64,000 nt of DNA. It comes from a virus. The translations under genes and the position numbers were made by a program. Under the pieces are notes generated by a model. The model had not been told where the DNA came from and ran no database searches. It saw nothing but the letters and a program-made list of their open reading frames with translations. Position 1 is the stretch's first letter. Each line of letters opens with the position of its first letter. The DNA is taken from IMG/VR virus record IMGVR_UViG_3300029931_000011. One strand, written 5' to 3'. Below, in pieces: positions 2,198 through 60,400 of this stretch.

Positions 2198-2924
2198 TGC
2201 TCTCCTCCTTGGCCTTGAGTGCGGCGATGCCCGCCATCACCAGGGCAATGCCCAGGTCGATGGCAGCCGCGGGGTCATCTGGCGCTGTCACCCCTTTCCA
2301 GTTGCGACCAGAGATGGCGGCCTCAAGCGTCTGAAGGGGGACACCGAGAACTCGGGCGAGGTAGCTCGTGGATGCGCCGTGTGACTTCATCAAGAGCGCG
2401 TCGCTGACGATCTTCTCGGTGAGCGTGTTGCGTCTCGTGTTTCGGCTTTGCTCGTCGCGCGTCGCCCACCGGCAGTTTCCCGGCTCGTAACCCTTGTCGT
2501 TGTCGATGCGGTCAAGGGAGTGCACCGGGGAGGGCTTCGGCCCCATGTCCGCCAGAAACGACTCAAAGGAACCGGACCACCGGTCACAGACCGCAATTCC
2601 GCGTCCCACATAGTTGTGCGCGCCCCTCCTCGTCGACCGTCCGCATCGATCCTTCATGTTCATCCACGCCTGGTACTCGCTCTTGTGCATGGACCGGAGA
2701 ACGCTCGCTTCCTTGCGAGCGCATCCGCAACTCGGGGCCCCGCCACCGCGCGCGACCTGACGTGGACTGGCATCGTCGCGCTCGACGGCCCTTCCGCAAT
2801 CGCACTGGAACATCCAGAACCACGAGTGGCCGACCTTGCGTGTCCGCTCCCTCGCCACTAGTCGCCCGTATCTCGTACCCGGAGACGTGGGCGCCAGCAC
2901 CGGCTCGTCGCTACGCCGCGTCAT
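2190..2924 (-). CDS. HNH-like (His-Me finger-like) protein with C-terminal HTH, paralog 1 of 4
   Basis: ORF trimmed to ATG 2924, preceded by GGAGG. Motifs: CDCG...CGC zinc ribbon, YVGRGIAVCDRW, HSLDRIDNDKGYEPGNCRWAT, and HTH-like SYLARVLGVPLQTLEAAISG. Paralogs are at 13956, 26239 and 59604. Confidence 0.85.
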   Translation of the reverse strand: MTRRSDEPVLAPTSPGTRYGRLVARERTRKVGHSWFWMFQCDCGRAVERDDASPRQVARGGGAPSCGCARKEASVLRSMHKSEYQAWMNMKDRCGRSTRRGAHNYVGRGIAVCDRWSGSFESFLADMGPKPSPVHSLDRIDNDKGYEPGNCRWATRDEQSRNTRRNTLTEKIVSDALLMKSHGASTSYLARVLGVPLQTLEAAISGRNWKGVTAPDDPAAAIDLGIALVMAGIAALKAKEESNG

Positions 2925-3146
2925 CGCTTGCCTCCATCTCGGGTCTCGGTCTGCATCGCGTCTCCCTCGGTTGCTCTCGTGGTGAGCCGACGACGTGTCA
3001 CCGTCGCCGGCCCGGGCCGCCACGCTCGACATGGGCGGCCTTGTCGCCGTGCCTACGTTGAGGCGCGCGCACCGCGCTGCGGTACTGACGAGTCGGGACC
3101 GAGCCCGACCTCCTCGATTTGGTTCGAGTCGTCCATGGTGGTCACC

Positions 3147-3800: not shown

Positions 3801-4966
3801 GGCGCGGTCTCCTCGGTGCTGGTCTCGGTCTCGGGGTTGCTGGTGTCGGTGTTGTTCGCGGTGGTCTCGATCGGCGTCGACTGCTGGAGGCCGACGAGGT
3901 AGCGGTGCAGCGCGCTGGTGTCGTCGCCGGCGCGGGCCACGGCCTTGCGCATGGCCTCGACGTGGACCGGGCGCTCGTCGGCGGACATGAACAGCGTGCC
4001 GAGCCGGTCGAGCTCGGCCTCGATGCTCTTGCGCAGGCCGTCGGGGCTCATCGAGTAGAGCGCCTCGAGTGCGTCTGCGAACGGTGCCCACTGCGCCTCG
4101 CTGGCCAGATCGATCTCCGACGGCATCGGCAGCGAGCACTTCGCCGCCCAGGTCGTCTTGCGCTGGAGGTGGATGATGCGGTTGCCCGAAACGCCGATCG
4201 CCTTACGGCCGATCTTCCGCACCGAGTCGTCGTAGGTGATGAACCCCACGACGTCGCACTTCTCGAGGAGCACGCCGGCGGCCTTCTCGTCGAGGCGCGG
4301 GCGGAAGATGTCGAAATCCTCGGCGAGCACCGACTTGTACTTGGCCACCACGGCGTGACCGAGGAGGATGACGTGCATCCCGGCCTTGAACCGGACGTCG
4401 TCGAGGCGCCGCACGAGGACGCGCCACATCTGGACGGCGATCTTCTGGCCGCTCGAGTAGCCGAAGTCCTCGATGTTCTCGATCTCCTTCCCCTCCTTGT
4501 TGCGGTGCCCGCGGGCCCGAGCGTCCTCGACGATGCGGTCGAAGATGAGCTGCTCGAGCGCGGCCACGCCGTCGAGCACGACGGTCTTGTAGCCGTACTG
4601 CTTCGCGTTCACGACGAGGTCGTCGAGCGCGTCTTCGACCTCGGTGAGCGTGCGCGCCACCGTGCCCTCGTCGCCCTCGGCGGGGCGGAACGGGTAGCGA
4701 GTCACGTGGAGATGGCGGGTGCGGCCCTCGATGTCGAGGAAGATCGGAGACGGCGCGTCGGCAGCGAGGCTCGACTTGCCGATGCCCTCGTCGCCGTAGA
4801 ACCAGAACAGCTTCGGATCGCGTCGGGCGCCGGCCACGACGGCGCCGAGCTTGGACGCCTTCACGGGTGCCGGGGCCGCCGGCTTGGCGGTCTGCGTCGT
4901 GCCGGACGCAGGGCGGGCGCCGTTGGCGGGCGCGGGACGAGGGACGGGTGCGGTGTTGGTCGCCAT
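3797..4966 (-). CDS. Sak4-like RecA-fold ATPase (AAA_24-type)
   Basis: Trimmed to ATG 4966 (GGAGG upstream). Walker A GDEGIGKS and Walker B-like KTVVLDG. Family resemblance is from memory only. Confidence 0.8.
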   Translation of the reverse strand: MATNTAPVPRPAPANGARPASGTTQTAKPAAPAPVKASKLGAVVAGARRDPKLFWFYGDEGIGKSSLAADAPSPIFLDIEGRTRHLHVTRYPFRPAEGDEGTVARTLTEVEDALDDLVVNAKQYGYKTVVLDGVAALEQLIFDRIVEDARARGHRNKEGKEIENIEDFGYSSGQKIAVQMWRVLVRRLDDVRFKAGMHVILLGHAVVAKYKSVLAEDFDIFRPRLDEKAAGVLLEKCDVVGFITYDDSVRKIGRKAIGVSGNRIIHLQRKTTWAAKCSLPMPSEIDLASEAQWAPFADALEALYSMSPDGLRKSIEAELDRLGTLFMSADERPVHVEAMRKAVARAGDDTSALHRYLVGLQQSTPIETTANNTDTSNPETETSTEETAP

Positions 4967-13355: not shown

Positions 13356-13963
13356 CCCGCCCCATCGTCCTCCTCGATGTCGACGGCCCGCTCGCGCTGT
13401 TCGTCGAGGCGTGCCAGGCCGAGCTCGCCGGCCACGGCGTCTACCGCGAGGCTGCCGCCGTCAAAACGTTCCGTCTCGAGGAGGCGTGGAGCCTGTCGCC
13501 CGACCAGAAGCAGATCCTCGCGCGCGCCTACAAGCGTCCAGGGTTCTGCGCTGGCATCGCGCCGCGCGAGAAAGCGCGAGAAGCCGTCGAGCGCCTGCGC
13601 GGCATCGCCGACGTCTACGCGGTCACCGCGCCGATGTGGAGCGGGCCGACGTGGCAGCACGAGCGCACCGAGTGGCTCGTCGATCACTTCGGGTTCCAGC
13701 GCGACCACGTCGTTTCGACGTCGGCAAAGTACCTCGTCGGCGGCGACGTGCTCGTCGACGATCGCGCCGAGACGCTGGTGATGTGGGAGCGACACGGGCG
13801 GGCGTCTGGTGTCGGCGTGCTGTGGGCGATGCCGCACAACTTCAACGCGTGGGCCAACGGCGAGTGGGACGGCGACCGGACTAGCGACTGGCAGGTCGTG
13901 ATCAACCTGGCCGAGCGACTGGCAGGCGCGCGCGATCCGCAGGAGGCGACGCGTCGTGCGTGA
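13352..13963 (+). CDS. HAD-family 5'(3')-deoxyribonucleotidase-like (NT5C-type)
   Basis: GTG start in a GTGA overlap. HAD motif I is LLDVDGPLA. Overall resemblance to the NT5C family is from memory. Confidence 0.8.
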   Translation: MTRPIVLLDVDGPLALFVEACQAELAGHGVYREAAAVKTFRLEEAWSLSPDQKQILARAYKRPGFCAGIAPREKAREAVERLRGIADVYAVTAPMWSGPTWQHERTEWLVDHFGFQRDHVVSTSAKYLVGGDVLVDDRAETLVMWERHGRASGVGVLWAMPHNFNAWANGEWDGDRTSDWQVVINLAERLAGARDPQEATRRA

Positions 13964-14468
13964 TCGCCCCGGCGTCATGGTGGTCAACGTCGCCACCGGC
14001 GAGACCCGTCCGCGCGCGCGGAAGGGTCCGCTCAAGCACGGTCTCTCGCGGACGCCCGAGTACCGCGCGTGGCAGACGATGCGGCACCGGTGCACCCGGC
14101 CGACAAGCCCAAGCTGGCCCGACTACGGCGGACGCGGCATCACCGTCGCCGCCGAGTGGCTCAATGACCCACGAGCCTTCATCGCCCACATCGGGCCGCG
14201 CCCATCTCCGAAGCATGAGGTCGACCGCATCGACAACGAGCGGGGCTACGAACCAGGCAATGTTCGATGGGTCACGCGCCCGGTCAACGACCGCAACCGA
14301 CGGAGCAACAACCTCCAGACGTTCAACGGCGAGACCCTGACGATCGCCGAGTGGGCGGAACGCACCGGCATCAGCGCCGACACGCTCTACGACCGCATCA
14401 CCCGGCGAGGTTGGTCAATCGAGAGGGCACTGACGACTCCGGTGCGCGCAAAGGCGAGGGCGGCGTAG
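13956..14468 (+). CDS. HNH-like protein with C-terminal HTH, paralog 2 of 4 (lacks N-terminal zinc ribbon)
   Basis: Full ORF. Motifs PEYRAWQTMRHRC, YGGRGITVAAEW, HEVDRIDNERGYEPGNVRWVT and HTH-like LTIAEWAERTGISADTLYDRITRRGW. Confidence 0.85.
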   Translation: MRDRPGVMVVNVATGETRPRARKGPLKHGLSRTPEYRAWQTMRHRCTRPTSPSWPDYGGRGITVAAEWLNDPRAFIAHIGPRPSPKHEVDRIDNERGYEPGNVRWVTRPVNDRNRRSNNLQTFNGETLTIAEWAERTGISADTLYDRITRRGWSIERALTTPVRAKARAA

Positions 14469-20520: not shown

Positions 20521-20813
20521 GCACCGAAGACCGCGACGTGTACCCCGCCGTCGTCCTCAACCCCGAGGCGATCGGCGAACCCAACCAGACGCCGGAGGTG
20601 CAACTCTCGCCGGCGCTGGTCGCCCTCGCGCGGGGCGAGTCCGCGGAGTCGGGCCCGTGCCGGAAGTGCAAGCGCGACGCACCGCCGAGCGCCGACGCCC
20701 TGGCCGCCAAGCTCGCGCGCGAGGACACGGGCGGCCCGATCGAATGGCTGTCGTACGAGGAGCAGGAGCGGTGGCGCCGGATCGCGCGGCACGCGCTCGA
20801 GGTGATCGGGTGA
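20517..20813 (+). CDS. hypothetical protein
   Basis: Full ORF of 98 aa with a GTGA overlap. Confidence 0.7.
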   Translation: MSTEDRDVYPAVVLNPEAIGEPNQTPEVQLSPALVALARGESAESGPCRKCKRDAPPSADALAAKLAREDTGGPIEWLSYEEQERWRRIARHALEVIG

Positions 20814-21364
20814 GCGCCTCCGACGACACCACGCCGACCGTTGAGGTCGTCGACTACTCCGACCTGCGGCCCTGCCCGCCGCTCCCCGGGCCGTTGTACG
20901 TCGACGACGAGCGCCTACCGCCGAACTTCTGGTCCAAGGTGACGCCCGAGCCGAATACTGGCTGCTGGCTGTGGTTTGCCTGTGGTTCTGCTGATGGGTA
21001 CGGGCAGTCGTTCGTGACGGGGAGGCAAGTGTACGCGCACAGGCTGGCGTACATCGTTCTTACCGGTCACGACCCGGGCGCGCTCCAGTTGGACCACCTG
21101 TGCCGCACGCGCTGCTGCGTAAACCCGGCACACCTCGAGCCGGTGACGAACGCCGAAAACTCGCGCCGGGGGCGCATTCGCCAGGTCACGAAGGAACGAC
21201 ACGCGGCCAAGACGCATTGCGTGAACGGGCACCCGTTCACCGACGAGAACACCCTCGTCCGCACAGAGCAGGGGCGCTCTGGCGTCTACGGCATCCGACG
21301 TTGCCGAGCGTGCAACCGGGAACGGATGCGGAAGCTTCGTAAGCTACGAAGGGAGTCGGCATGA
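20810..21364 (+). CDS. HNH endonuclease (HNH_3-type) with a 30-aa N-terminal extension
   Basis: ORF 20411..21364 trimmed to GTG 20810 (GTGA overlap). Motif CWLWFACGSADGYGQ...AHRLAYIV...LDHLCRTRCCVNPAHLEPVTNAENS. The N-terminal VVDYSDLRPCPPLPGP repeats the start of the next gene. Confidence 0.9.
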   Translation: MSASDDTTPTVEVVDYSDLRPCPPLPGPLYVDDERLPPNFWSKVTPEPNTGCWLWFACGSADGYGQSFVTGRQVYAHRLAYIVLTGHDPGALQLDHLCRTRCCVNPAHLEPVTNAENSRRGRIRQVTKERHAAKTHCVNGHPFTDENTLVRTEQGRSGVYGIRRCRACNRERMRKLRKLRRESA

Positions 21365-21810
21365 GGGACGAATTTCAAGACGAGGGGCTCGTTGTCGACA
21401 TTTCCGATCTTCGACCATGCCCATTCCTGCCTGGACCCTTCCCGGAACGCTGCACCGCTCGCTGCGTGTGCTGTGACGACCGCATGGAGGTGTTCATCGA
21501 CCAGCGTGTGAGCCTGGATGCCGACAGCACCGGCGACACCGCCCGGCTCGTGCCCGCGATCCCCGTCGACCAGCACGCTCGGTTGCTCGCGATGTCGGCG
21601 AGCGCGGTGGGCCGCGATGGCGTCGGCGGGTGGCTGCTCATCCCGGATCCGAAGCGGGGCATCGAATGGGTGTGCCGCGAGTGCGCGAAGGTGGCGATCG
21701 ACTTCACTGCCGACGAGGTGCAGAAGGCCGTCGCGATGTGGCTGCGGTGGTCGCGGATCGAGGTGGAGGACAGGACGGCGGGCGCGCCGAGGCGTTGGGG
21801 GCGGCGATGA
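21361..21810 (+). CDS. hypothetical Cys-containing protein
   Basis: Full ORF of 149 aa. The first ~30 codons are A/T3-rich and encode VVDISDLRPCPFLPGP. Confidence 0.7.
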   Translation: MRDEFQDEGLVVDISDLRPCPFLPGPFPERCTARCVCCDDRMEVFIDQRVSLDADSTGDTARLVPAIPVDQHARLLAMSASAVGRDGVGGWLLIPDPKRGIEWVCRECAKVAIDFTADEVQKAVAMWLRWSRIEVEDRTAGAPRRWGRR

Positions 21811-23938: not shown

Positions 23939-24474
23939 CCCGTCTCATCCCCGGCGAGAAGCTCGACGAGGCGACGCGGAAGCGGATCCGCGATCTCATC
24001 AAGGCGGTGAGCGGGGACGGCGACCGCGGAAACGCGTCGCGCATCGCGGCCGAGCGCCTGCTTGTACTCGCGCCGAACAACGCCGTCACTGCTGAACTGG
24101 TCGTGTTCGTCGAGAGGGTGCTGGCGATCGCGGTGTCTCACTGCCCTCGATGCCTTGACCCGAGCGTGGGTCTCTGTACGCCGTGTCGCGCAGCGCACGC
24201 GATCGAGTTCTCGGAGGCGACGCGGGTGCGACAAGGGCGCGTGACGCTGGCGCCCGTTCCCCAGGTGGCTCGGTCGCGCGGTGCGCTCGCCGACCGCGAC
24301 CTCGACGAACTGATCGCCGAGTGCACGCGGAAGAAGCGGTACGTCAGCCAGATCGACGCTGACCGCGTGGCGGCGAAGCGGGGTGCGTTGAGCGGCGTGG
24401 CGCTGCGGTCGTACTCATGCACCGCTGGCTGCGGTGGCTGGCACATCACCCACAAGCCCCAAAGGGCATCATGA
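23935..24474 (+). CDS. hypothetical protein with Cys motifs
   Basis: ATG 23935 in an ATGA overlap. Motifs CPRCLDPSVGLCTPC and CTAGCGGWH. Confidence 0.7.
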   Translation: MTRLIPGEKLDEATRKRIRDLIKAVSGDGDRGNASRIAAERLLVLAPNNAVTAELVVFVERVLAIAVSHCPRCLDPSVGLCTPCRAAHAIEFSEATRVRQGRVTLAPVPQVARSRGALADRDLDELIAECTRKKRYVSQIDADRVAAKRGALSGVALRSYSCTAGCGGWHITHKPQRAS

Positions 24475-25274
24475 CCGGCGCCGCGCAGATCGCGCTCCTC
24501 GCCGACTGCCCGCCGGTGCCGGCGGCCCGGTCCGACGACGAGGAGATCGCCCGGGGCGTGGTGGCGTTCGTGACGTGGCTCGTGTCGCTCGTCGATCACG
24601 AGGAGCAGCGTGAGCGCGCCGCCGCCGCCCGCCGGCAACGTATCGCCGCGAAGGCCAGTCAGCGCAGCCTCGACGGCAGAACCGGATCGTCGTGGTGGTT
24701 GCCGGGCGACGACCGGGTTCATCTTCCCGTGCTCGTCCCGAATTCGGACCACTGCGGCGAGGATATCGACTGCGAGAGGTACACGTGCCCGTGGCACACG
24801 TCGCTTGAGCTTGGCGAGCCCGAGGTGGTCGACGGCTCGGTCTGGCGGCGAGCAACGATCAACACGGGGTGGCGCGAGGAAGGCGACCCGGTCCGTGGAC
24901 GCCGGCCGTCATTCAACGTCGAGGACCAGGCGGACGAGCGAAACTGGCCGCCCTTCGAGGCCGCGCTCCGCGAGGAACGGCGGGCGATGCGCGAGGCCGG
25001 TCACGATCCATGTGGCGACCGCTTCAGCAAGAGGGTGCGCGCGGCGCGCGAAGAAGCCGAGGACAGCGTCAACCCGCTCGCACCGCAGGAGATCGACGAC
25101 ATCACGGTGGTCGCCGTTGGGCGCATGATCGGCACCAGCGACGAATCGATCCGGCTCACCACCAACGACGCGTTCGCCAAGCTGCGGAACATGGCTCGCG
25201 ACGGGGGCTACGGAGAGACTGGCGACGTGGACGACCTGATCGAAGCTCTCGCGTTCGGCGCCGGGGTCGAGTAG
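24471..25274 (+). CDS. protein with C-terminal sigma region-4-like HTH
   Basis: ATG 24471 in an ATGA overlap. C-terminal EIDDITVVAVGRMIGTSDESIRLTTNDAFAKLRNMA. Confidence 0.7.
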   Translation: MTGAAQIALLADCPPVPAARSDDEEIARGVVAFVTWLVSLVDHEEQRERAAAARRQRIAAKASQRSLDGRTGSSWWLPGDDRVHLPVLVPNSDHCGEDIDCERYTCPWHTSLELGEPEVVDGSVWRRATINTGWREEGDPVRGRRPSFNVEDQADERNWPPFEAALREERRAMREAGHDPCGDRFSKRVRAAREEAEDSVNPLAPQEIDDITVVAVGRMIGTSDESIRLTTNDAFAKLRNMARDGGYGETGDVDDLIEALAFGAGVE

Positions 25275-25280
25275 GCCGCG

Positions 25281-25772
25281 ATGCTCATGGTCGAGCGCCG
25301 GCTCGCGCGCGAGCTCCGGGCAAAGAGCCGCAACCGGCACCGGAAGCGCAAGGAGCTCGGCGCGCGCGCCACCACAGAGCGGTCGAGGAAGCTCACCGAC
25401 GAGGAGCGGCGCTACGGCGAGATGCTCGACGAGCTACCGCCGACGCCGCGCCCGCGCACGCGCGGCGAGTGCCGGGACATGGAGCGGCCGTGCCCGTACG
25501 TCGGCTGCCGGCACCACCTGTATCTCGAGGTCCTGCCGAGCGGCTCGATCAAGTTCAACCACCCTGGGCTGGAGCTCCACCAGATGCGCGAAACGTGCTC
25601 CCTGGACGCCGCCGAGCGCGAGCCGTCGTCGCAGGAGTGGACCGGCGTGCTGCTCAACCTGACGCACACCCGCGTCGAGCAGATCGAGATCGAGGCGTTG
25701 GCGAAGCTGCGAGGACGGTCGAACGAGCCCGAGCAGATCGGCGCGGCGCTGATCAGGAAGCCGCGTGAATGA
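25281..25772 (+). CDS. sigma-70 region-4-like DNA-binding protein, last gene of the early-right operon (candidate late activator)
   Basis: Full ORF of 163 aa. Motifs RPCPYVGCRHHLYLEV and LLNLTHTRVEQIEIEALAKLR. The late-activator role is inferred from position only. Confidence 0.75.
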   Translation: MLMVERRLARELRAKSRNRHRKRKELGARATTERSRKLTDEERRYGEMLDELPPTPRPRTRGECRDMERPCPYVGCRHHLYLEVLPSGSIKFNHPGLELHQMRETCSLDAAEREPSSQEWTGVLLNLTHTRVEQIEIEALAKLRGRSNEPEQIGAALIRKPRE

Positions 25773-26113
25773 CGAGGGAATCGCGCCCTTGGGAGTTTTT
25801 TCTTGCGTGGGGCCGCCAGACCCCTGACTCTCCTCTCGCGCGCCCGGTCAGAGCGAAGGATCTCTGCTCCCACTTCTTCCGCCGAAGGCGCTCTCCCAAA
25901 AAAGAAGCGTGTCGGCGGCGAAGCCGCCTCTCAGCGGGGCTGGCGCTCCAAACGAGGAGCGGTGCCGGGCAAAGGCCGGCGAGACAAGATCTTTTGGTGA
26001 GAGGCCTGTCCGCGCGTCGGACCTCGCGAGCCCGCTGTCGCCTCACCCTCCCCGGGCGATGTGGCGCCAGCGCGACACTTGCGCCCTGGCCGGACCGTGG
26101 GCACGATCCCTCC

Positions 26114-26239
26114 ATGACCCCGATCCGCGCCCTCGCCGCCATCCTGACCGCCATGCTCGTCCTGGGGGCGTGCGGGGACTCAGGCCCCGGGGAGGACGGC
26201 GAGCTGCCGGCGGCGTTCACCGTGATGGAGGTACACTGA
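26114..26239 (+). pseudogene. orphan 5' stub of a lipoprotein gene (41 codons)
   Basis: MTPIRALAAILTAMLVLGACGDSGPGEDGELPAAFTVMEVH*. G/C3-rich. Shares the lipobox and the GEDGELPA.F.V block with the lipoprotein at 26883. Its TGA overlaps the ATG of the HNH-like gene. Confidence 0.55.
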
Positions 26240-26883
26240 TGCCCCCGTTCGTCGACTACACCGGGAAGCGATTCGGAGCCCTGGTCGTTGAAGGGAAGGC
26301 GGCGCAGACTGCCCACGGCAAGTTCCGCTGGTCGTGCCTGTGCGACTGCGGCGCCCGGACCATCGTGGAGGGGCGGTGCCTGAAGAGCGGCGGCGTGAGC
26401 TCCTGTGGATGCCAGCGGCGTGCGCGAATCAGCGCGAAGGCACGGGCGCGCTGGGGTGACCCGCTTGCGCTCAAGGAGAACAACCCGGTCGAATACAATG
26501 CGTGGGCGAACATGATCAATCGCTGCGAGAACCCACGTAACAAGTTCTTCTCGAACTACGGCGGTCGAGGCATCAAGGTCTGCGCCGAGTGGCGTGAGAG
26601 CTTCGCGCGCTTTCTTTCCGACATGGGCAAGCGCCCATCGCCGGGGCACTCCCTCGATCGCATCAAGGGCGACGGGAACTACACGCCGCTCAACTGCCGA
26701 TGGGCGACCCGAGTTGAGCAGAACCGAAACCGACGCAACTGCCTCGAGCCCCACGAGCCTGACCAGATCCGGTGGCTTCGCGCCAGTGGGTACACGAATC
26801 GTGAGATCGCCTGCTTCTTCGATGTGCACTATTCCTCGGTCGCCCGCATTGCCCAGGGGCGTACATGGACGGAGGCTGCGTGA
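26239..26883 (+). CDS. HNH-like protein with zinc ribbon and C-terminal HTH, paralog 3 of 4
   Basis: ORF 25909..26883 trimmed to ATG 26239. Motifs CLCDCG...CGC, YGGRGIKVCAEW, HSLDRIKGDGNYTPLNCRWAT and HTH-like YTNREIACFFDVHYSSVARIAQGRTW. Confidence 0.85.
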   Translation: MPPFVDYTGKRFGALVVEGKAAQTAHGKFRWSCLCDCGARTIVEGRCLKSGGVSSCGCQRRARISAKARARWGDPLALKENNPVEYNAWANMINRCENPRNKFFSNYGGRGIKVCAEWRESFARFLSDMGKRPSPGHSLDRIKGDGNYTPLNCRWATRVEQNRNRRNCLEPHEPDQIRWLRASGYTNREIACFFDVHYSSVARIAQGRTWTEAA

Positions 26884-27326
26884 TGCGTACATGGTTGGCT
26901 GCGGTCGCGGTCGCGGTGATCGCCGCGTGTGGTGGTGGCGGCGGGGGCGAGGATGGGGAGCTGCCGGCGGGCTTTGAGGTCAACGCGACACGAACGGATG
27001 GCGGTGGACCCGTCGTGAGCTGTCCGTCCACGCCGTCTTGGCGTGCGTGGTTCGAGGATGTGTCCTCCACCGGCGCGACCCTCACGCCGAATGGCGCCAG
27101 TGGGCCTGGGGCATGGGTGTGCGGGGCGCCGATGCGCGTCGACGGCGCGTGGGTCGTAGGCTGCGAGGCGAATACCGGAAGCGTCACGGTTTCGTCGGTG
27201 TTCACCTTCGCCGACGCTGGCGGAGGAGTGATCGATCACGTCGGAACCTTCAACGCTGACGGGAGCGCCGCCTGCGCCTCGTCGTACCGCATCGACTCCA
27301 TCGTCGAGGACCTCGACGGCCCGTGA
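26883..27326 (+). CDS. lipoprotein
   Basis: ORF 26865..27326 trimmed to ATG 26883 (TGATG junction). N-terminus MRTWLAAVAVAVIAACGGGGGGEDGELPAGFEV. Many A/T-ending codons. Confidence 0.75.
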   Translation: MRTWLAAVAVAVIAACGGGGGGEDGELPAGFEVNATRTDGGGPVVSCPSTPSWRAWFEDVSSTGATLTPNGASGPGAWVCGAPMRVDGAWVVGCEANTGSVTVSSVFTFADAGGGVIDHVGTFNADGSAACASSYRIDSIVEDLDGP

Positions 27327-27364
27327 ATGTGGGGACATGTCACGCGCACGCCTAGCGTGCTGCG

Positions 27365-28189
27365 GTGGCGTTCGCTGACGACGAAATCTCGCCCCATGAC
27401 GGCGACACGGTAGAGCTCTACGAGTTCATCGGCCCGCAGATCGCGTATCGCTACACGAGCTGCGAGCGCCAGATCGTCCTGAACGGGAACGTGTACACGC
27501 CCGTGGCGGGGCTCGTGCGCACGGCTATCGGGGCCAACTCGACAGGTGACACGGCCGCCTTGGCGGTGTCGCTGCCCGTGACCACGCAGGTTATCCGGGA
27601 CTACGGGCTCGACGACGTCCCTCCTCGGTCACTGTTGCTCCGAGTCTACCGACGACAGGAGCGTAGCGCCGAGTACGTCGAGATCTGGATCGGAAGCGTC
27701 AACAGCATCCAGCCCATGGGGCGCATGGCCGAAGTCCGGTCGATCTCGCAGCTCGGCGAGCGGCTCGACATGGTCCTGCCGTCGGTGTCGGTGCAGAGGC
27801 TCTGCAACCATTTCCTCTTTGATCGACGGTGCAGAGTCGACCGCCTGACCTACGACTTCGAGACAGTCGTGACGAATGTGAGCGGAGCGACGGTCACGCT
27901 GGCGTCGATCGGCATCGCCCCGGACCAGTGGTTCCGCGCCGGCGAGATCGTGCGCAACGTTGACGGGGAGCGGCGTGCGATCGTCGACCAGGCCGGCGCC
28001 GTTCTCACGCTCGCACACCCGTTCCGAACGCTCTTGAACGGCAACGGGGTGACGCTCTACGCGGGGTGTGACCACACGCTCGCGACCTGCTCCGACAAGT
28101 TCAACAACGCGGTGAACTTCGGCGGGCACCCGACGGTGCCATCGAGCAACCCGTTCCTGACCCCGATCCGCCTCACGAGGGGGAGCTGA
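27365..28189 (+). CDS. tail hub protein, DUF2163 / phage BR0599-like (RcGTA g13-type)
   Basis: Full ORF of 274 aa. The C-terminal CDHTLATCSDKFNNAVNFGGHPTVPS matches my memory of the BR0599 family signature. Confidence 0.8.
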   Translation: MAFADDEISPHDGDTVELYEFIGPQIAYRYTSCERQIVLNGNVYTPVAGLVRTAIGANSTGDTAALAVSLPVTTQVIRDYGLDDVPPRSLLLRVYRRQERSAEYVEIWIGSVNSIQPMGRMAEVRSISQLGERLDMVLPSVSVQRLCNHFLFDRRCRVDRLTYDFETVVTNVSGATVTLASIGIAPDQWFRAGEIVRNVDGERRAIVDQAGAVLTLAHPFRTLLNGNGVTLYAGCDHTLATCSDKFNNAVNFGGHPTVPSSNPFLTPIRLTRGS

Positions 28190-31100
28190 TGGCGTTCTGG
28201 ACCATCGTGCAGCTCGGCTACCTGGCTGGCTACTACGGCTGGCAGATGTACAAGCATCACCAGGCGAAGAAGGAGGTCCCGCGGGCGGCCTCGCTCGATG
28301 AGTTCACCTACCCGCGCGCGACCGAGGGCGATCCCGTCCCGCTGATCTACGGGACCGTTCGCGTCCGCTCCCCGGTGGTCTTGTGGGTCGGCGATCTGGA
28401 GCCGTTCCCGCAGGTGGTCAACGGCGTCACGGTCGGTTACCAGTATCGCATCGGGATGCGGCTGCTACTCGGCCGCGGGAACACGGACGTTGGGGCAACG
28501 TCCGGCTTCGCGACGCTGCAAGGCATGTACATCGGCGACGTGCAGCCGCCGAGCTTCGCGGGCCCCTTCTCTCCGACGGCGCACGCCGGCTACTACCAGG
28601 TCAACGCGGACGATTTCGACCCGGGCAACTTCAACGTCGGGACCAACGGGCGCCTCGTGTTCTACGACGGCTCGTGGGATCTCGAGCGGTACGCGCTCGT
28701 GGCGTCTGCGTCGGAGCCGCTGAACCCGCCGTATCGCGGTCAGATCACCGTGCTCCTCCAGAACTGGTCCGTCGGCACCGCGCCGACGATGCCCTCATAC
28801 AGCTTCATCGTCCACAACCCGGTCTACATCCCAGGCTACGAGTCGGTGTCGGGGCCGATCGCCAACGGCGCGGCCAACCCGGCATCCGTGCTCTACGACC
28901 TGCTGACGAATGAGTGGGGCTGCGTCGCGAACGCCGCGCCGCTCGTGGATGTCGCCAGCTTCGCAGCGTGCGCGGCAACCTTGCAGGACGAGCAGCACGG
29001 CTTCTCGGCGATCATCAACGACTCGCGCGACGCGAGGAGCGTGGTGGAGCAGGTGCTTCGCCAGATCGACGGGGTTCTCTACGAGGACCCGCAAACGCGC
29101 CGCTACGTGCTCAAGCTCATCCGCGAGGACTACGACCCGAACACGTTGCCGGTGTTCGACCCGAGCAACGTCGTCGGCCAGCCGAAGAAGCCGACGAAGC
29201 TGTGGGACGAGGCAGTGAACGAGGTGCGGGTGATCTTCACGAACCCAGTCTCGGGCTACGGGGAGGGTGTCGCCGTCGAGCAGGATCTGTCGATCATCAG
29301 CTACAACGGCGGACGCCGCCGCTCGGCCGAGTTCCGCTTCCTCGGCGTCACGCACGCGCAGCTCGCTCAGGAGTTGGCGGCGCGCGAGCTCAACTTCCTT
29401 TCGCGCCCAATCTCTCGCCTCCGCATGACGGTCAACCGCGAGGCGTTCGACCTCAAGCCGGGCGACGTCTTCCGCTTCAACTGGCCCGAGTGGAACGGGT
29501 ACACCCAGGTCTTCCGCCTCGGCGAGATCGACTACGGCGACCTGGAGGACGGGAAGATCACGATCACGGCCGTACAGGATCGCTTCGCCATCCAGGGCAC
29601 CGTCTTCGACCCGCCCGACGACGAGATCGGGCCGACCCGGCCGGTCGCCGACCCGATCCATGTCAGCCACATCACCGAGGCGCCGCGGTGGATCATGCTC
29701 AAGGCCTACGAGCAGGGTCACATCGCCAACGTCGACGCGCAGCGGGGCTACTTCCTGGCCAAGCCGGAGGGGTCCGACTCGCGCTACCAGGTCCAGTCCG
29801 GCTGGTCGACGGCGCTGCAGGAGGTCGACATGCCCGGCCGGGTCTTCCCGGGCACGTTCACCGTGGAGACGGAGTACGCGAAGACGACCTCGGCCTACGA
29901 CACGTCGACCCATCTGCGGATCGAGAACGTCGTGGGGTGGACGCCGGGCGTCGTGACCACGACGCAGATCCAGGTCGAGGGGCGCAACGTGATCGGTGTG
30001 CTCGATGCCAACGGCGCCCTCGAGATCATGGCCTACGAGGACGTGATCGACCTCGGCGGCGGCGTGTACCGGCTCCTGAACGTCTGGCGCGGCCTGCTGG
30101 ACACGGTTCCGGCCACGCACGCCGTCGGGGCGCAGGGCTTCGTGCTGCCCGGCAGCTACCTCGCCGCCGGCATGGGGCGCCGCGTGTACACGCATGGGAC
30201 GGCGATCACGGCGTACACCCAGGGCGCCGCCGGCTCCTCGGTGGTGCCGGTCGAGGACAGCCCCGAGGACACCTTCACCGCCCGCTCGCGCTCTCTCCTG
30301 CCGTACCCGGGCAGCGACCTGCTCGTGAACGGAACGAAGGCGCCCGTGGCGCTCGAGGAGGGCGGCGTCACCCTTCAGTGGAATACCCGCGACCGCCTCA
30401 AGACGACGATCACCCGGGGCAACGCGAGCGCCGAGACGCCCGAGGCGAACACGACCTACGACGCCGTGGCCGTGAAGGGCGACCCGGTGACGCCGGGCTC
30501 CGAGGTGAGCCTCGCGTCCGGCGTGACGACCTCGAGCACGACGCAGCACCCACTCGGCGCCGCCGGCCACGGCGCGCTCCAGGTCGGCGTCCGCACGAAG
30601 CGCACGGGCGTCGCGCTCTCCGACGGCACGACGCCGATCGGCGGTGTCTTCAACTGGCAGACCCCGCTCCTCGACATCCAGGCGCACCACTGGCGCAACC
30701 TGCTCTTGAACCCGCGCTTCGCTTCGGGCCTTGGGCTCAACCATTGGGACGCGGTCACCGGCGTCGCGACGACCTCGAACAGCGGCGGTCTCGGCAACAA
30801 CAGCTTCTACGTCACGGGGCAGAGCGGCACGACGGTCGAGATCCGCCAGACGCTCGACCTCACCGGGTACAACCCGAAGAACTACAGCGCCGCCCTCGAC
30901 TTCTACGTTCACAACGGCGGCGACTCCGGCGACACGGTGCAGGTCGAGCTCATCTCGCTCGACGCGGCGACCTCCGTGCTCCAGACGCAGACCTACGGCG
31001 CGAGCGACCCTGGCAACGCCTGGGTGAAGCAGACGCTCTCGATCGCAGACCTGCACGACGATACGAAGTACCTACGCGTGCGCATCATCCTCAACGCGGT

Positions 31101-33537
31101 CGGCGAGCTGGACAGCGTCGCCTCGTGCCGCGTCACCGAACTGTGCCTGCGCGTCGGGCAGGTGTCGGCGCAGCTGCTCCTCAACCCGAGCTTCGAGGCC
31201 GGGCTCACGTCATGGACGGCCGGCGGCTCGGGGATGCAGGTCCTCACCACGACGCCCTACGAGCTGACGAACTACGTCCGGCCGCAGGACGGCGCCTCGT
31301 CGACGCTCTCGCAGACGGTCGCGCTGCCGACGGGCTACGAGGATGGAGTCGTTGTGTGCGAGTGCGCGCGGATGAACGACGCGGCCGACGACACCGGCAC
31401 CGTGCTGGTGGAGTGCCTGGACGGTGGCGCCGCGACGGTGGCCTCGGCGACGACCGGGGCCGAGGCGATCTCGCCGACGAACGCGTGGGTGCGGCGCCGG
31501 CTGGTCATCGACCCGATCCCGCCAACCACCGTGAACATCCGCGTCACCTTCACCGGCACGCGGGTCACCGGCACGCCGAACAACTCGTGCGTCGACGACT
31601 TCGACCTCCGCGTCCACAAGCACCTCGATCCCGACGAGGAGACGCACCTCCTCGACGGCATGGACTTCGTCGAGCAGCCCTTGCCGCGCACGCTGACCGA
31701 CTGGAAGCAGCACTTCCCGGCGGTGCCGCCGCCCGACTACGCGATCTACGACGGCGGGCTCGTCGGCCGCCTCGGCATCGAGCCCCTTCTGGAGGCCGGC
31801 GCCGGCTGCTTCGCGGGCGGCAAGGCGGTCGCCGTCGGGCCCGAGGGCGACGCGACGACCTGCTACGAGTCGACGGGGCGCTCCGACGTCGCCGACGAGG
31901 ACATCCACACGGCGCCGGTCGGGGATGCATTCGCGAACTTCGGCACCGCTGACCCGTTCACGGCGATCGCCTTCTGGAAGCTGACGGAAGGGTTCACCGA
32001 CCCCGCCGGGCTCATGGGGCGCGTCGTCGGCTCGCGCGGCTGGGCCTTCGACCTCGACAGCGACTCCATCCCGCGCGTGCGCCTCTTCGGCGCCAGCGCG
32101 ACCATCGCGCAGGGCGGCAACAACCGGACCGACGACGGCTCGCTCCACGGCGCCGCGATGATCTACGACCAGGCCAACAGCCTCTTGCGGTCGGTAGATC
32201 CGTCGGGCAGCTTCTCGGCCTCGACTGCGGGCATGGGGGAGATCCGCGCGACCTCGCCGGGGAAGTTCCGGCTGATGGCGACGGGCGAGGCGGGTGTCGA
32301 CCGGCTCCCAGGGCAGGTGGTGCGCGCGTACCTGTGGCGTCAGGCCCTCACGGTGGCGCAGGCGCAGGAGGTCATCCGGTACGCGGAGTCACCGGTGGCA
32401 GGGCTCGATCCGAACGAGCAGACCCGCGGCGGCACCATCGTGTGCGTCGTCGGCAGCGACAGCGAGGGTGTGCTCGTCGAGAAGTTCGGGCCGCTGCGGC
32501 CGGCGCTCTCCGTCGACCCGGGCTCTGGTCGCGTCGGGCTCGTCGGGATGCCTGCGCTGACGAACCTGGCGCCGGACACGTTCGACCCGGGGAGCGGATG
32601 GGATGCAGCAGGCTCGGGAGGCGCGGCCGCGGTCACGCTCGACGTCGCGGCGGACCCGACCGGACACAGGGTCGCGGCGCGCATCGTCGGCGACGACGTT
32701 CAAGAGTGGACGTTCGGGTACGCCAGCCCGCTCACCTTCGGCAGCGCCGGGACCCGCCACCTGCACTTCTTCGCGCGCGCCGACGACACGCACACGATGG
32801 CGGTCGCGCTGATGAACGCGGGCGATGGCATGGTCGACTCCGACGGCTTCGTGGTCACGCCGCAGTGGCAGCTGTTCACCTTCGCCATGGCCTGGGATGG
32901 CTCCTCGAGCGGAGAAGGCTATCTCTCGTTCCGGGCGTCGAACGACGGCACGGAGCGCACCATCTACCTGTCGCCGGTCATGTTCCTGGGCGGCACCGCG
33001 GCGAGCCCTTGGCCCGGCACGATCCCGATCGGAACCCCCGGCGCGACGTCACCGCTCCTCACGATCGCGCCCTCGGCGCAGTTCAACCGCGAGGGCGAGA
33101 TCGAGGTCGAGCTGGTCAACTACGACGAGGCGGGCGTCATCGCCAACGCGCACAACGACGCGGACGACGACGACCGGCGGCGCATCACCTGGCCGACGAC
33201 CGGGGGCGGGGACGTCGGCAGCGAGCACTACGACGGGTCAGGCTCGGACGACTCGTCGGCGCTGGTCGCGAACACGACCGTCGACATCGCCCAGCCCTGG
33301 AAGGCGCGGCTGCGGTGGAACCGGGCCGGGCTGGTCGACGGCGTGGCGTCGGCGTTCGTCGTGCTGCGGGCCGAGCAGGGCGCCACGGTCGAGCAGGACG
33401 GCGGGCGGGCGTCGGCGTTCTCGGCCTCGACGACGGCGCTGACGCGGCTGGCGCTGCTGCACGAGGCGGGCGCCACGAGCGCCATGGCAGGGCTCGTGTT
33501 CTCGGCGAGGATCAGCGCGAGGGAGCGGAAGGTGTAA
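28189..33537 (+). CDS. host-specificity / central tail fibre protein (lambda J / GTA g15-like), 1782 aa
   Basis: Full ORF. N-terminal PVPLIYGTVRVRSPVVLW. Repeated LLNP(R/S)F..GL..W modules (CBM-like) and a LamG-like block (FTAIAFWKL...VRAYLWRQALT). TGATG junction with the hub gene. Confidence 0.9.
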   Translation: MAFWTIVQLGYLAGYYGWQMYKHHQAKKEVPRAASLDEFTYPRATEGDPVPLIYGTVRVRSPVVLWVGDLEPFPQVVNGVTVGYQYRIGMRLLLGRGNTDVGATSGFATLQGMYIGDVQPPSFAGPFSPTAHAGYYQVNADDFDPGNFNVGTNGRLVFYDGSWDLERYALVASASEPLNPPYRGQITVLLQNWSVGTAPTMPSYSFIVHNPVYIPGYESVSGPIANGAANPASVLYDLLTNEWGCVANAAPLVDVASFAACAATLQDEQHGFSAIINDSRDARSVVEQVLRQIDGVLYEDPQTRRYVLKLIREDYDPNTLPVFDPSNVVGQPKKPTKLWDEAVNEVRVIFTNPVSGYGEGVAVEQDLSIISYNGGRRRSAEFRFLGVTHAQLAQELAARELNFLSRPISRLRMTVNREAFDLKPGDVFRFNWPEWNGYTQVFRLGEIDYGDLEDGKITITAVQDRFAIQGTVFDPPDDEIGPTRPVADPIHVSHITEAPRWIMLKAYEQGHIANVDAQRGYFLAKPEGSDSRYQVQSGWSTALQEVDMPGRVFPGTFTVETEYAKTTSAYDTSTHLRIENVVGWTPGVVTTTQIQVEGRNVIGVLDANGALEIMAYEDVIDLGGGVYRLLNVWRGLLDTVPATHAVGAQGFVLPGSYLAAGMGRRVYTHGTAITAYTQGAAGSSVVPVEDSPEDTFTARSRSLLPYPGSDLLVNGTKAPVALEEGGVTLQWNTRDRLKTTITRGNASAETPEANTTYDAVAVKGDPVTPGSEVSLASGVTTSSTTQHPLGAAGHGALQVGVRTKRTGVALSDGTTPIGGVFNWQTPLLDIQAHHWRNLLLNPRFASGLGLNHWDAVTGVATTSNSGGLGNNSFYVTGQSGTTVEIRQTLDLTGYNPKNYSAALDFYVHNGGDSGDTVQVELISLDAATSVLQTQTYGASDPGNAWVKQTLSIADLHDDTKYLRVRIILNAVGELDSVASCRVTELCLRVGQVSAQLLLNPSFEAGLTSWTAGGSGMQVLTTTPYELTNYVRPQDGASSTLSQTVALPTGYEDGVVVCECARMNDAADDTGTVLVECLDGGAATVASATTGAEAISPTNAWVRRRLVIDPIPPTTVNIRVTFTGTRVTGTPNNSCVDDFDLRVHKHLDPDEETHLLDGMDFVEQPLPRTLTDWKQHFPAVPPPDYAIYDGGLVGRLGIEPLLEAGAGCFAGGKAVAVGPEGDATTCYESTGRSDVADEDIHTAPVGDAFANFGTADPFTAIAFWKLTEGFTDPAGLMGRVVGSRGWAFDLDSDSIPRVRLFGASATIAQGGNNRTDDGSLHGAAMIYDQANSLLRSVDPSGSFSASTAGMGEIRATSPGKFRLMATGEAGVDRLPGQVVRAYLWRQALTVAQAQEVIRYAESPVAGLDPNEQTRGGTIVCVVGSDSEGVLVEKFGPLRPALSVDPGSGRVGLVGMPALTNLAPDTFDPGSGWDAAGSGGAAAVTLDVAADPTGHRVAARIVGDDVQEWTFGYASPLTFGSAGTRHLHFFARADDTHTMAVALMNAGDGMVDSDGFVVTPQWQLFTFAMAWDGSSSGEGYLSFRASNDGTERTIYLSPVMFLGGTAASPWPGTIPIGTPGATSPLLTIAPSAQFNREGEIEVELVNYDEAGVIANAHNDADDDDRRRITWPTTGGGDVGSEHYDGSGSDDSSALVANTTVDIAQPWKARLRWNRAGLVDGVASAFVVLRAEQGATVEQDGGRASAFSASTTALTRLALLHEAGATSAMAGLVFSARISARERKV

Positions 33538-58843: not shown

Positions 58844-59638
58844 ATGCCCTCGTTCCTCTCCCGCCTTCTCGCGCCCTTCCTCGCGACGTGGCGCCAGCTC
58901 CTCACGCCGCCCGCCATCCCGTCCACCGACGTGCTGATGAGCGAGACGGAGTCCGAGATCGATGCCGACGTGATCGAGGCATGCGGCAAGCTGGCGATGG
59001 CACGCCTGACCGAACTGTGGCGGCAGGATATCTACGACCCTCGCCACACCGAGACGAGCGAGAACGCCGAGCGGTGCCGCGCTGCGATCCTCGACATCAT
59101 CCACAACGGCGGCGGGTGGCGGTGGATCAAGCGATACGGCGGCGACGGCGCACCCGCGGCAGAGCACGCCGAGTGGTGCGGCTTCACGCAGGCGTGGGCG
59201 TGGGCGCCGTGGATCCCCGAGGAGACGCGGAAGACGTGGTGGGCGTCGACGTACCGGCTCGATGCGTGGGCGCGCTATGCGGCGCTCGACATGAGCGGGA
59301 AGACCACGCCGAACCCGAAGCCGGCGCGCGGGCCCTTCCGCCTCTACGTCAAGCTCGACGAGCACTCGACGAAGCTTCCATTCCAGCCGCAGGCCGGTGA
59401 CATCCTGCTCGTGGGCGACGGGAAGCCTGACTACGGCGACCACGTCTGCGGCGTGCTCGGGTACGACGAGAAGCGGCGGATGTTTTCTACGTTAGAAGGA
59501 AACGGCGGCGGCCTAGGGCCAGATGGAAAGAAGCAGCACGGTCTAGTGAAGGCCGAACGCCCCCTTGGGGCGACGTCCGGTCACTCGTACCACGCGCGGC
59601 GCCTCATCCGGCTTTCGCCGTCGGACCTGATTCCGTAG
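58844..59638 (+). CDS. endolysin, CHAP/NlpC-P60-like cysteine peptidase/amidase
   Basis: Full ORF of 264 aa. Candidate catalytic residues are Cys (EHAEWCGFTQAW) and His (GDHVCGVLGY), then STLEGNGGG. The last ~50 codons are A/T3-rich. Confidence 0.75.
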   Translation: MPSFLSRLLAPFLATWRQLLTPPAIPSTDVLMSETESEIDADVIEACGKLAMARLTELWRQDIYDPRHTETSENAERCRAAILDIIHNGGGWRWIKRYGGDGAPAAEHAEWCGFTQAWAWAPWIPEETRKTWWASTYRLDAWARYAALDMSGKTTPNPKPARGPFRLYVKLDEHSTKLPFQPQAGDILLVGDGKPDYGDHVCGVLGYDEKRRMFSTLEGNGGGLGPDGKKQHGLVKAERPLGATSGHSYHARRLIRLSPSDLIP

Positions 59639-60310
59639 CCCACGCGCCGTCGTTGAGTACGTGGCTGACGGCTGACTCCGAGCAGCCGACCGCGTCGGAG
59701 ATGGCCTTGTAGCTGTTGCCTTCTGACCGCAGCGCGCGAATGCGTTCCGCCTTCTCCGGGGTGAGAACGACACCGCGACGATTCCTCGCCTGTGTCGTCG
59801 GCAGCGCCCACCGGCAGTTGCCCGGCTCGTAACCCTTGGTGCCGTCGACGCGATCGATGGAGTGACGCTTCGACGGGCGCGGGCCCATGTCGGCGAGGAA
59901 CGCCGCGAAGCTCTCGCGCCAGCGGTCGCACACGGTGATTCCGCGGCCGCCATAGTCCGCGTAGTCGCCGCAGTTCGTGTCGGCGCACCGCTGGCGCATC
60001 CGCTTCCACAGGCCGAAGTCCGGGTGGCGTCGCTCGTCAGCGCGAGCGAGCCCATGCCTGAACTTGACCCTCGAGATACGCTCAGCCGCGCCCTCGCGCT
60101 GAAAGCATCCGCACGAGCGGGTCTTGCCGTTGCGAAGGGTTCCTGCGCGGACCACTAGTTCGCCGCCGCAGTCGCAGCGGCAGTGCCATGCAGCGTCTTT
60201 CCACTCGGGCTTGGCGACGCGCTCGATGACGAGAAGCCGCCCGAACCGCTGACCGCGCAAGTCAATGAATGCCGGCATGTGACATCGATAGTCACGAATA
60301 CCGGCGGCGC
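59480..60310. mobile_element. putative homing cassette: recoded endolysin 3' end plus HNH-like gene
   Basis: Compositionally atypical (A/T-ending codons). Bounded on the right by the orphan native endolysin tail at 60311-60400. Boundaries are approximate. Confidence 0.5.
59604..60278 (-). CDS. HNH-like protein with zinc ribbon and C-terminal HTH, paralog 4 of 4
   Basis: Full ORF of 224 aa. Motifs CRCDCG...CGC, YGGRGITVCDRW, HSIDRVDGTKGYEPGNCRWAL and HTH-like SYKAISDAVGCSESAVSHVLNDGAW. Confidence 0.85.
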   Translation of the reverse strand: MPAFIDLRGQRFGRLLVIERVAKPEWKDAAWHCRCDCGGELVVRAGTLRNGKTRSCGCFQREGAAERISRVKFRHGLARADERRHPDFGLWKRMRQRCADTNCGDYADYGGRGITVCDRWRESFAAFLADMGPRPSKRHSIDRVDGTKGYEPGNCRWALPTTQARNRRGVVLTPEKAERIRALRSEGNSYKAISDAVGCSESAVSHVLNDGAWATESGPTAKAG

Positions 60311-60400
60311 AAGGCCGAGCGACCGCTGGGCGCGCGCTCGGGCCACGGCTACCACGCGCGACGGCTGATCCGCGTGGCCCCGCACGACCTTATCGGGTAG
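60311..60400 (+). pseudogene. orphan 3' end of the endolysin gene (29 codons + TAG)
   Basis: Translates KAERPLGARSGHGYHARRLIRVAPHDLIG*, against the endolysin C-terminus KAERPLGATSGHSYHARRLIRLSPSDLIP*. No start codon or upstream coding context. Confidence 0.7.

Follow-up and report, generated by a model that had tools for sequence, protein, structure and literature searches.

The window analysed here is the 64,000-nt stretch of the IMG/VR virus record IMGVR_UViG_3300029931_000011, which covers nearly the whole of a tailed-phage genome of ~65.5 kb and 70% GC. The first gene of its tail operon encodes a lipoprotein, and the 5′ end of this gene is found twice, once as a short open reading frame (ORF) upstream of an HNH-like gene and once as part of a complete gene downstream of it. 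How can one gene have come by two beginnings, and which of them is native? We found that related lineages lack the HNH gene and have just one lipoprotein gene here, that the two copies match the alleles of different relatives, and that the same architecture recurs at two other HNH genes of the window. On balance we consider it probable that the locus was left by a homing-type recombination in which one junction was homologous and the other illegitimate.

Two 5′ ends of one lipoprotein gene

The short ORF (26114-26239) has 41 codons, MTPIRALAAILTAMLVLGACGDSGPGEDGELPAAFTVMEVH being its translation up to the stop, and contains a signal peptide and the lipobox LGAC. Its TGA (26237-26239) shares the A with the ATG (26239-26241) of the HNH-like gene, which lies on the + strand (26239..26883, 214 aa) and encodes a putative free-standing homing endonuclease. 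The TGA of the latter (26881-26883) shares its A, in a second TGATG overlap, with the ATG (26883-26885) of the complete lipoprotein gene (26883..27326, + strand; 147 aa, lipobox IAAC), which has no upstream region of its own. The short ORF, its lipobox and both TGATG junctions had been described in a first-pass annotation of this DNA, and all could be read directly from the letters.

The stub, the HNH-like gene and the lipoprotein gene are separate ORFs, each with its own start and stop, and Rfam had no family in 25500-27500 at E ≤ 1; on these two grounds we discarded an intron or intein. An insertion sequence or transposon was rejected as well, since the direct repeats are diverged and in frame, no inverted repeats occur at 26229 or 26883, and no transposase family was matched.

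The similarity between the stub and the full gene, which the first-pass annotation had noted, proved to be significant at the protein level. The in-frame Smith-Waterman score was 87, against 24.6 ± 4.3 for shuffled sequences (z = 14.6), and 0/5000 shuffles reached it; the mature part alone gave z = 10.8, and tblastn inside the window returned the same match with E = 9e-6. In the DNA, the two copies form a direct repeat of 46 nt with 72% identity, in the same orientation and in frame, 757 nt apart, and a comparison of the flanks by blastn (DNA only) ranked at about the 92nd percentile of random positions. Because this DNA-level signal is weak, the statistical case is carried by the in-frame match of the proteins and by the relatives described below. 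Our initial statistic, tblastx of the left versus the right flank, was dropped when off-frame Arg/Pro/Ser-rich translations turned out to score 40-60 bits at random positions of this 70% GC genome; it was replaced by the in-frame Smith-Waterman alignment with shuffles and by a SEG-filtered whole-proteome tblastn.

HNH-less relatives and the allele types of the two copies

Phages with a lipoprotein gene at this position and without the HNH-like gene could indeed be found. Searching 5.8 billion proteins with the lipoprotein retrieved one other homologue, P0002 (65% identity, BLASTP), encoded on L006, a contig of 953 bp that carries a 97-nt intergenic region, the lipoprotein gene and then a tail-assembly gene, with no HNH gene. 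The conserved right flank of the locus, the tail assembly/baseplate-hub-like gene (27365..28189, + strand; Pfam PF09931 and PF09356), was used as a further query, and its protein added four lineages: L022/L024 (76% identity in amino acids), L025 and L026-28. Each of these has one lipoprotein gene of ~150 aa directly 5′ of the tail-assembly gene, again with no HNH gene. All five related metagenomic lineages, then, carry a single intact lipoprotein gene between the same upstream block and the same tail-assembly gene, and the HNH-like gene is present or absent at an otherwise conserved position.

Other collections were less productive. When the region 24000-30000 was compared by blastn with 50,697 phage records, no close relative emerged; in IMG/VR, neither the lipoprotein (as a single sequence or as an alignment) nor the tail-assembly protein retrieved more than a fragment of the same phage and distant relatives; and a genome scan for a prophage copy of the lipoprotein found none. 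Metagenome relatives at ≤35% identity have other tail genes in place of the lipoprotein and are uninformative for this site.

The comparison with L022 gives the two boundaries. By blastn, L022 4449-4625 corresponds to window 26042-26220 (80%; upstream region and stub) and L022 4959-10825 to window 27323-33160 (81%), with no similarity between 26220 and 27323; the match starts again only where the full copy has its stop codon. The stub and its upstream block are collinear with the 5′ end of the HNH-less L022 gene (80% over 184 nt). A multiple alignment placed the left junction at 26228/26229, where the homology to L025 and L022 stops after ...GTGATGG (GCGTTCACCGTGATGG). The stranded native 5′ end (26114..26228, + strand) is of the L022/L025 allele type and comprises codons 1-38 plus one base, that is, the signal peptide, the lipobox LGAC and the linker CGDSGPGEDGELPAAFTVM; the lipopeptide predicted for the stub is CGDSGPGEDGELPAAFTVMEVH. 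Between the junction and the HNH-like gene lies a 10-nt leader, AGGTACACTG (26229..26238, + strand), that has no counterpart in the relatives and seems to have arrived together with the HNH-like gene.

Upstream, the stretch 26042..26113 (+ strand) is homologous to the HNH-less relatives and is probably the native promoter/leader region of the lipoprotein gene. Its first 45 nt (26042-26086) are a block identical in L022, and it contains a box, ACACTTGCG, common to the window, L025 and L006. A promoter function is putative; no sigma-70-like promoter was found upstream of the stub, 26042-26113 has no match to the sigma-70 consensus, and the conserved upstream box CGACACTTGCG is present only once in the window and is not a repeated promoter motif. 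Homology to the L006 upstream region was found 5′ of the stub (z = 6.5) but not 5′ of the full copy, where the 3′ end of the HNH-like gene lies (z = 0.3). The upstream region native to the gene is the one in front of the stub.

One might ask whether the 41-codon ORF is a remnant at all, or a functional small gene for a small lipopeptide or spanin-like product. Its start codon, signal peptide and lipobox are intact, it is called as a gene on several contigs, and it is identical in all sampled copies, although this identity is uninformative, the whole locus being invariant. None of the relatives, however, has it as an independent gene: in the alignment their homologous sequence runs on from the stub equivalent into the 150-aa protein, the last three codons and the stop of the window's ORF being supplied by the inserted leader. 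The stub has no family matches either, and we regard a small functional gene as quite improbable.

The two copies are also of different allele types. Over its 38 native residues the stub shares 25 with L022, 22 with L025, 18 with L006 and 16 with the adjoining full copy; after the lipobox Cys, 17 of the 19 mature residues are identical to those of L022. The full copy, for its part, is 61% identical to the L006 protein and 29% identical to the L022, L025 and L026 proteins. By these alignments, the stub is the 5′ end of an L022-type allele and the full copy an L006-type allele, so that the flanking DNA of two lineages meets at the HNH-like gene. The first-pass annotation had pictured a native gene end stranded beside the nuclease gene with a foreign, complete copy on the other side, and this is what the allele types support. 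They also favor its proposal that the exchanged unit includes the whole lipoprotein gene, the full copy being L006-type and only 29% identical to L022. The simplest reading they support is an L022-like backbone in which the resident gene was replaced, from codon 39 on, by the HNH gene plus a complete L006-type gene.

With 29-61% identity among its alleles, the lipoprotein gene behaves as a cassette, hypervariable inside and conserved at its edges (window 26883-27334, L022 4504-4968, L025 4502-4966, L026 ~4505-4966, L006 325-787). What is conserved is the N-terminal linker CG..GPGE.GELPA.F, the Cys pattern, and the block GAATGTGGGG (27325..27334, + strand) directly 3′ of the stop codon, which is common to all lineages and marks the right edge of the cassette, the point from which every relative is homologous again. 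The linker nucleotide block, GAGCTGCCGGCGG, is the sole nucleotide block conserved among the alleles, and codon ~38 lies just 3′ of it.

The allele types bear on another possibility, namely that a tandem duplication came first and the copies diverged, after which the HNH-like gene landed in the first copy, most of which was deleted. The copies are direct repeats in the same orientation at a distance of 757 nt, as such a duplication would leave them. Nevertheless, two copies are present in 0/5 of the related lineages, the stub is nearer to the L022 gene than to its own neighbor, and the signal-peptide DNA of the two copies is unalignable although the backbone is 80% identical to L022. Moreover, the short-terminus pattern recurs at two unrelated genes (see below). 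We consider this sequence of events very unlikely.

Composition distinguishes the two copies as well. The GC content at third codon positions (GC3) reaches 0.93 in the stub (0.97 over the 37 homologous codons) but only 0.81 in the HNH-like gene and 0.78 in the complete lipoprotein gene, against a genome mean of 0.94 and a 1st percentile of 0.80 for 147-codon windows. The contrast between a G/C3-rich stub and a full gene of foreign composition, as reported in the first-pass annotation, is therefore real. As an argument for import it is weaker, since the HNH-less L006 allele has a GC3 of 0.81, low like that of the full copy: low GC3 is a trait of the L006 allele class and alone no proof of recent import.

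Recurrence at other HNH genes and the nature of the HNH-like family

We scanned for similar arrangements by tblastn of 132 coding-like ORFs against the window, together with an unmasked search with the lipoprotein. Besides the HNH paralogs themselves, the window contains three partial gene duplications; 3/3 bracket an HNH gene, and the HNH genes belong to two unrelated families. At all three sites the HNH gene has the stub on its start side and the working copy directly at its 3′ end.

The second site concerns a complete gene at 21361-21810 (gene X), the first ~27 codons of which are repeated at 20810-20890. Here the native stub continues in frame into a classical HNH_3 endonuclease, as a single fused ORF (20810..21364, + strand) with a Pfam HNH_3 match (PF13392, E = 3e-9) and a PHROG match that starts at residue 34. 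The stop of this ORF overlaps the start of gene X (ATGA). The stub matches the HNH-less L025 (601-1050) at 83% and the gene body does so at 70%; the N-terminus of the working copy is unrelated. The stub has a GC3 of 0.96 and the replaced terminus one of 0.57; the remaining part of the gene, at 0.90, is native-like, and therefore the imported tract at this site was short.

At the third site, an HNH-like paralog on the − strand (59604..60278) is located between a complete gene for a 264-aa protein (58844-59638, + strand) and a stranded copy of its 3′ end (60311-60400): the last 28 codons are repeated at 60311-60394 (+ strand; 82% amino acid identity, E = 9e-10, z = 23). This is the endolysin site that the first-pass annotation saw mirrored at the lipoprotein locus. 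The shared architecture is real; the label is unconfirmed, as the 264-aa protein has no Pfam or PHROG match. The paralog and the 264-aa gene overlap at their 3′ ends by 35 nt (59604-59638), and the stub starting at 60311 abuts a convergent gene (60401-60646). Pooled GC3 counts were 88/93 for stubs, which resembles the genome at large, and 65/90 for replaced termini (Fisher p = 4e-5).

The gene X site brings up a stricter version of terminus exchange for the lipoprotein as well, in which only the HNH-like gene and a surrogate 5′ end of ~33 codons would have been imported and the remainder of the gene would be native. The GC3 profile of gene X (0.96, 0.57 and 0.90) fits this exactly, and in the lipoprotein gene, too, the first 41 codons have the lowest GC3 (0.71, versus 0.81 for the remainder). 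The signal peptide of the full copy, MRTWLAAVAVAVIAAC, is unlike that of any HNH-less allele, and the nucleotide homology to L006 begins only at 26946; past the stop codon, the window matches L006 (77/97) about as well as L022 (72/97). Set against this, the stub has the linker AAFTVM of the L022/L025 type, and the bodies of those alleles are 29% identical to the full copy. The left flank, the stub and 5.9 kb of tail genes all follow L022, and the gene upstream of the lipoprotein in L006 differs from the window's. For the lipoprotein site we therefore hold an import limited to the terminus to be unlikely.

The HNH-like protein itself belongs to PHROG 374, annotated as HNH endonuclease (E = 4e-60); it has no sequence match in Pfam, NCBIfam or the PDB beyond a weak C-terminal helix-turn-helix. 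An AlphaFold2 model (predicted local distance difference test, pLDDT, of 91.6) comprises an N-terminal beta module with CxC...CxC, a beta-beta-alpha element (137-165) and a C-terminal three-helix module. Foldseek searches with this model gave nothing significant in the PDB, and in BFVD many phage proteins named HNH endonuclease or AP2-domain protein. The motif (H)S-L-D-R-I...N-C-R-W...Q..N runs through 40 homologs, among which Arg141, Asn152 and Gln161 are invariant, Asn164 is found in 39/40 and His137 in 28/40; in the family alignment A4, Cys96, Cys115 and Cys153 are invariant. Arg141 stands at what we take to be the position of the canonical general-base His in the HNH_3-type DH motif. Nuclease activity of this family is plausible but unproven, and the case for mobility is built on the comparative footprint rather than on the active site.

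The family is widespread: tblastn gave matches in 1143 phage records, covering many hosts; HNH or homing endonuclease is a frequent annotation, and matches at several sites of one genome are common. The window alone has four diverged copies, the three paralogs found by tblastn being at 59604-60278 (− strand), 2190-3032 (− strand) and 13956-14468 (+ strand, truncated). The last of these lacks the N-terminal Cys module and looks degenerate, and the start codon of the one at 2190-3032 is ambiguous (the maximal ORF has 280 aa, with homology from residue ~45-52). No flanking gene-end duplicate was detected at 13956-14468 or 2190-3032, nor at four homologs in other phages (L016, L017, L019 and L021). 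The stub footprint is thus not obligatory or universal for the HNH-like family.

Given these features, the HNH-like gene might have been passive, a DNA-binding protein gene and no nuclease gene, carried along in ordinary mosaic, illegitimate recombination between co-infecting phages. An invariant Arg in place of the canonical catalytic His and the lack of a Pfam HNH match or a PDB fold match would suit such a passenger, and a hypervariable cassette with conserved edges could be swapped by homologous recombination with no nuclease at work. On the other hand, an HNH gene is bracketed by every one of the three partial gene duplications in the window, and at one site it is a genuine Pfam HNH_3 endonuclease gene; the stub is always at the HNH start side. 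The family is also sporadic, multi-copy and cross-host, as is typical of homing endonuclease genes. A passive HNH-like gene seems to us unlikely.

A proposed course of events, and its analogues

The homing-type recombination that we favor would have started from an L022-like backbone with one lipoprotein gene, in the order upstream block, lipoprotein gene, GAATGTGGGG and tail-assembly gene. A double-strand break, presumably made by the HNH-like protein, would have occurred in the resident gene near codon 38, just 3′ of GAGCTGCCGGCGG. The right end may then have been resected through the divergent gene body and have paired, by strand invasion, with conserved sequence of a co-infecting donor at the gene end or past it, with copying proceeding leftward through the donor's lipoprotein gene and then its HNH gene. 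Past the HNH gene the other end would have had no homology, and it could have been joined illegitimately 10 nt 5′ of the HNH ATG. The segment brought in from a diverged relative would consist of the 10-nt leader, the HNH-like gene and a complete L006-like lipoprotein gene, and would have replaced the resident sequence from codon 39 through the stop codon. The first 38 resident codons would survive as a stub because the left joint is illegitimate and lies inside the resident gene.

After such an event, the native upstream region and start codon would drive the stub, and all three ORFs could be translated in series with the tail operon left intact. The Shine-Dalgarno sequence GGAGG (26227-26231) spans the left junction and was created by the joint. 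Serial translational coupling of the stub, HNH-like and lipoprotein genes is the likely means of expression, given the stop/start overlaps, the GGAGG at the joint and the result of a pattern scan, in which the stretch from the 3′ end of the HNH-like gene to the tail genes showed no terminator-like site. A single terminator consensus match falls inside the HNH-like coding sequence (26592-26608); the two terminator-pattern hits in the region are within shuffle expectation.

Several points weigh against this account. No donor with the HNH gene and the window's lipoprotein allele was found in our searches, and both the direction of transfer and the donor structure are deduced. The gene body is hypervariable in all relatives, hence the right boundary would appear in any comparison and neither dates nor sizes the tract. 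At least 23 sampled copies are identical at the locus, with no presence/absence polymorphism within the population. Finally, there are the HNH-like protein's lack of a Pfam HNH match and of a significant Foldseek match in the PDB, together with the Arg at the general-base position and a His137 kept in only 28/40 homologs.

The sampled copies just mentioned are near-identical contigs (≥23) from several metagenomes. Five of them, of 65 kb, show no polymorphism in 25773-27400, and in the 6.6 kb around the locus their variable columns are confined to 24622-24699, 25292-25305 and 28724. Thirteen substitutions unique to L015 are clustered at 24631-24699, within the ORF 24417-25274, suggesting a small recombination patch; the variant at 24622 is a single one, in L011. 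A JGI contig of the same phage, L005, aligns with window 25308-33204 over 7903 columns (7854 nt) with 4 gaps; the greater part of this span is the gene for a 1782-aa tail protein. Lipoprotein calls of "64 aa" on L011 and L014 were gene-caller artifacts, not mutations.

A sigma-r4-like gene (25281-25772) belongs to the upstream transcription unit and ends just before a terminator-like hairpin with a T-run (25773..25797, + strand; a 6-bp stem followed by TTTTTT, found by pattern match only), which is predicted to close that unit. Next come a noncoding gap of 340 nt (GC3 0.66), the stub, the HNH-like gene, the lipoprotein gene, the tail-assembly/hub gene and the gene for the 1782-aa tail protein (28189-33537). 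The gap 5′ of the lipoprotein start is 340 nt in the window versus 156 nt in L022 and 97 nt in L006. On some public contigs the stub ORF is extended through it to 156 aa (25769-26239); the extension has a GC3 of 0.66 and is noncoding-like.

The closest analogue of the locus that we know is the mobile ORF (mORF) hybrid of fungal mitochondria, described for atp6 of Allomyces macrogynus and for atp6, atp9, cox2 and nad3 of Glomus sp.; there, a foreign terminus and an endonuclease ORF are inserted in phase and the native terminus is stranded, the latter being closer to the relatives (PMC3630166, citing Paquin et al. 1994). The phage locus works alike and is no member of that set. At all three sites (lipoprotein, 20810-21810 and 58844-60400) an endonuclease ORF sits within a coding gene and one terminus is present twice, and at the lipoprotein and gene X sites the stranded stub is native and the working terminus foreign and diverged. 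The endolysin-like site duplicates a 3′ end, as mORFs do, whereas at the lipoprotein and gene X sites the 5′ end is duplicated and the stub keeps the promoter and start. Other differences are the host (a phage with tail genes here, a mitochondrial genome there) and the enzyme type (HNH here, LAGLIDADG or GIY-YIG in mORFs). Furthermore, import of the whole gene is probable at the lipoprotein site, unlike in mORFs, while GC3 favors a terminus-only import at gene X; and the lipoprotein site has stop/start overlaps where mORFs have a fusion, the gene X site being fused as well.

Among phages, the free-standing homing endonuclease genes of T4-like phages and ICP1 offer parallels in intronless homing, marker exclusion, co-conversion and islands of such genes (PMC2988022, PMC2790892, PMC10448857). 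They share with our locus a nuclease gene in or between conserved genes, its presence or absence in relatives, a foreign flank and several copies. For a stranded terminus with a complete replacement copy, our literature searches turned up no account among them, and the putative nuclease of our locus lacks the canonical His. In ICP1 and other phages, homing endonuclease genes have also been found at the borders of exchanged segments (PMC10448857). For T4, homing in which one side is homologous and the other, lacking homology, is repaired illegitimately is reported (PMC2988022, citing Parker et al. 1999). Homology on one side and a junction at little or no homology on the other is the geometry that a stub needs; the T4 case is reported as an experimental plasmid/phage system with an intron endonuclease, whereas here the pathway is deduced from a natural product.

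The Xanthomonas phages Xp10, OP1 and Xop411 have free-standing endonuclease genes of the HNN/HNH-AP2 kind (PMC2248197). Several dispersed, partly degenerate copies per genome and a motif of the H/N/N type are common to these phages and the window, and the BFVD fold matches include AP2-domain phage proteins; in contrast, no Pfam AP2 or HNH domain is detected in the window's HNH-like proteins. We found no description of the stub architecture for a phage in the literature, the coverage of which was incomplete, so that this is absence of evidence only.

As to the lipoprotein, no Pfam, PHROG or NCBIfam match was obtained, and its AlphaFold2 model, a predicted all-beta domain of low confidence (pLDDT 64.8), had no PDB fold match. 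Phages are known to encode superinfection-exclusion lipoproteins beside tail or receptor-binding genes, such as Llp of T5 and Cor of phi80 and N15. The window's lipoprotein is similarly small, has a lipobox, is encoded beside tail genes and is hypervariable among relatives; it differs in having no detected sequence or fold similarity to those proteins. By this analogy we would guess at an exclusion-type role.

The mechanism is already known in kind, as homing-type conversion with a one-sided illegitimate joint; for the phage setting we found no prior description. The three sites would represent natural products of homing-type recombination in a phage, resolved to the base pair within one genome, with one junction homologous and one illegitimate, and involving two unrelated HNH families. 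They indicate that a selfish nuclease gene can settle within a coding sequence, leave the operon intact and carry along a whole foreign allele of a fast-evolving gene. For annotation such stubs are a trap, being called as genes (the 41-aa or the 156-aa ORF on public contigs), and active mobile nuclease genes and their targets could be sought in metagenomes by looking for duplicated gene ends on either side of a small ORF. PHROG 374, very widespread, devoid of a Pfam or NCBIfam model and lacking the canonical His, merits biochemical study.

More tentatively, HNH-type selfish phage genes may routinely invade gene ends as cassettes of a nuclease gene plus a replacement gene end, using the stranded native start for expression, through an in-frame fusion or a stop/start overlap, and handing translation on to the replacement copy. 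We would put this forward as a possibility that is not the likeliest one. If it were true, the same footprint left by a family with Arg for His would imply a non-canonical active site, and such invasions would cause the alleles of a hypervariable lipoprotein in the tail operon, perhaps an exclusion factor, to be replaced. They would also let phage nuclease genes, with neither intron nor intein, reside within genes that stay functional, a phage counterpart of the mitochondrial mobile ORFs.

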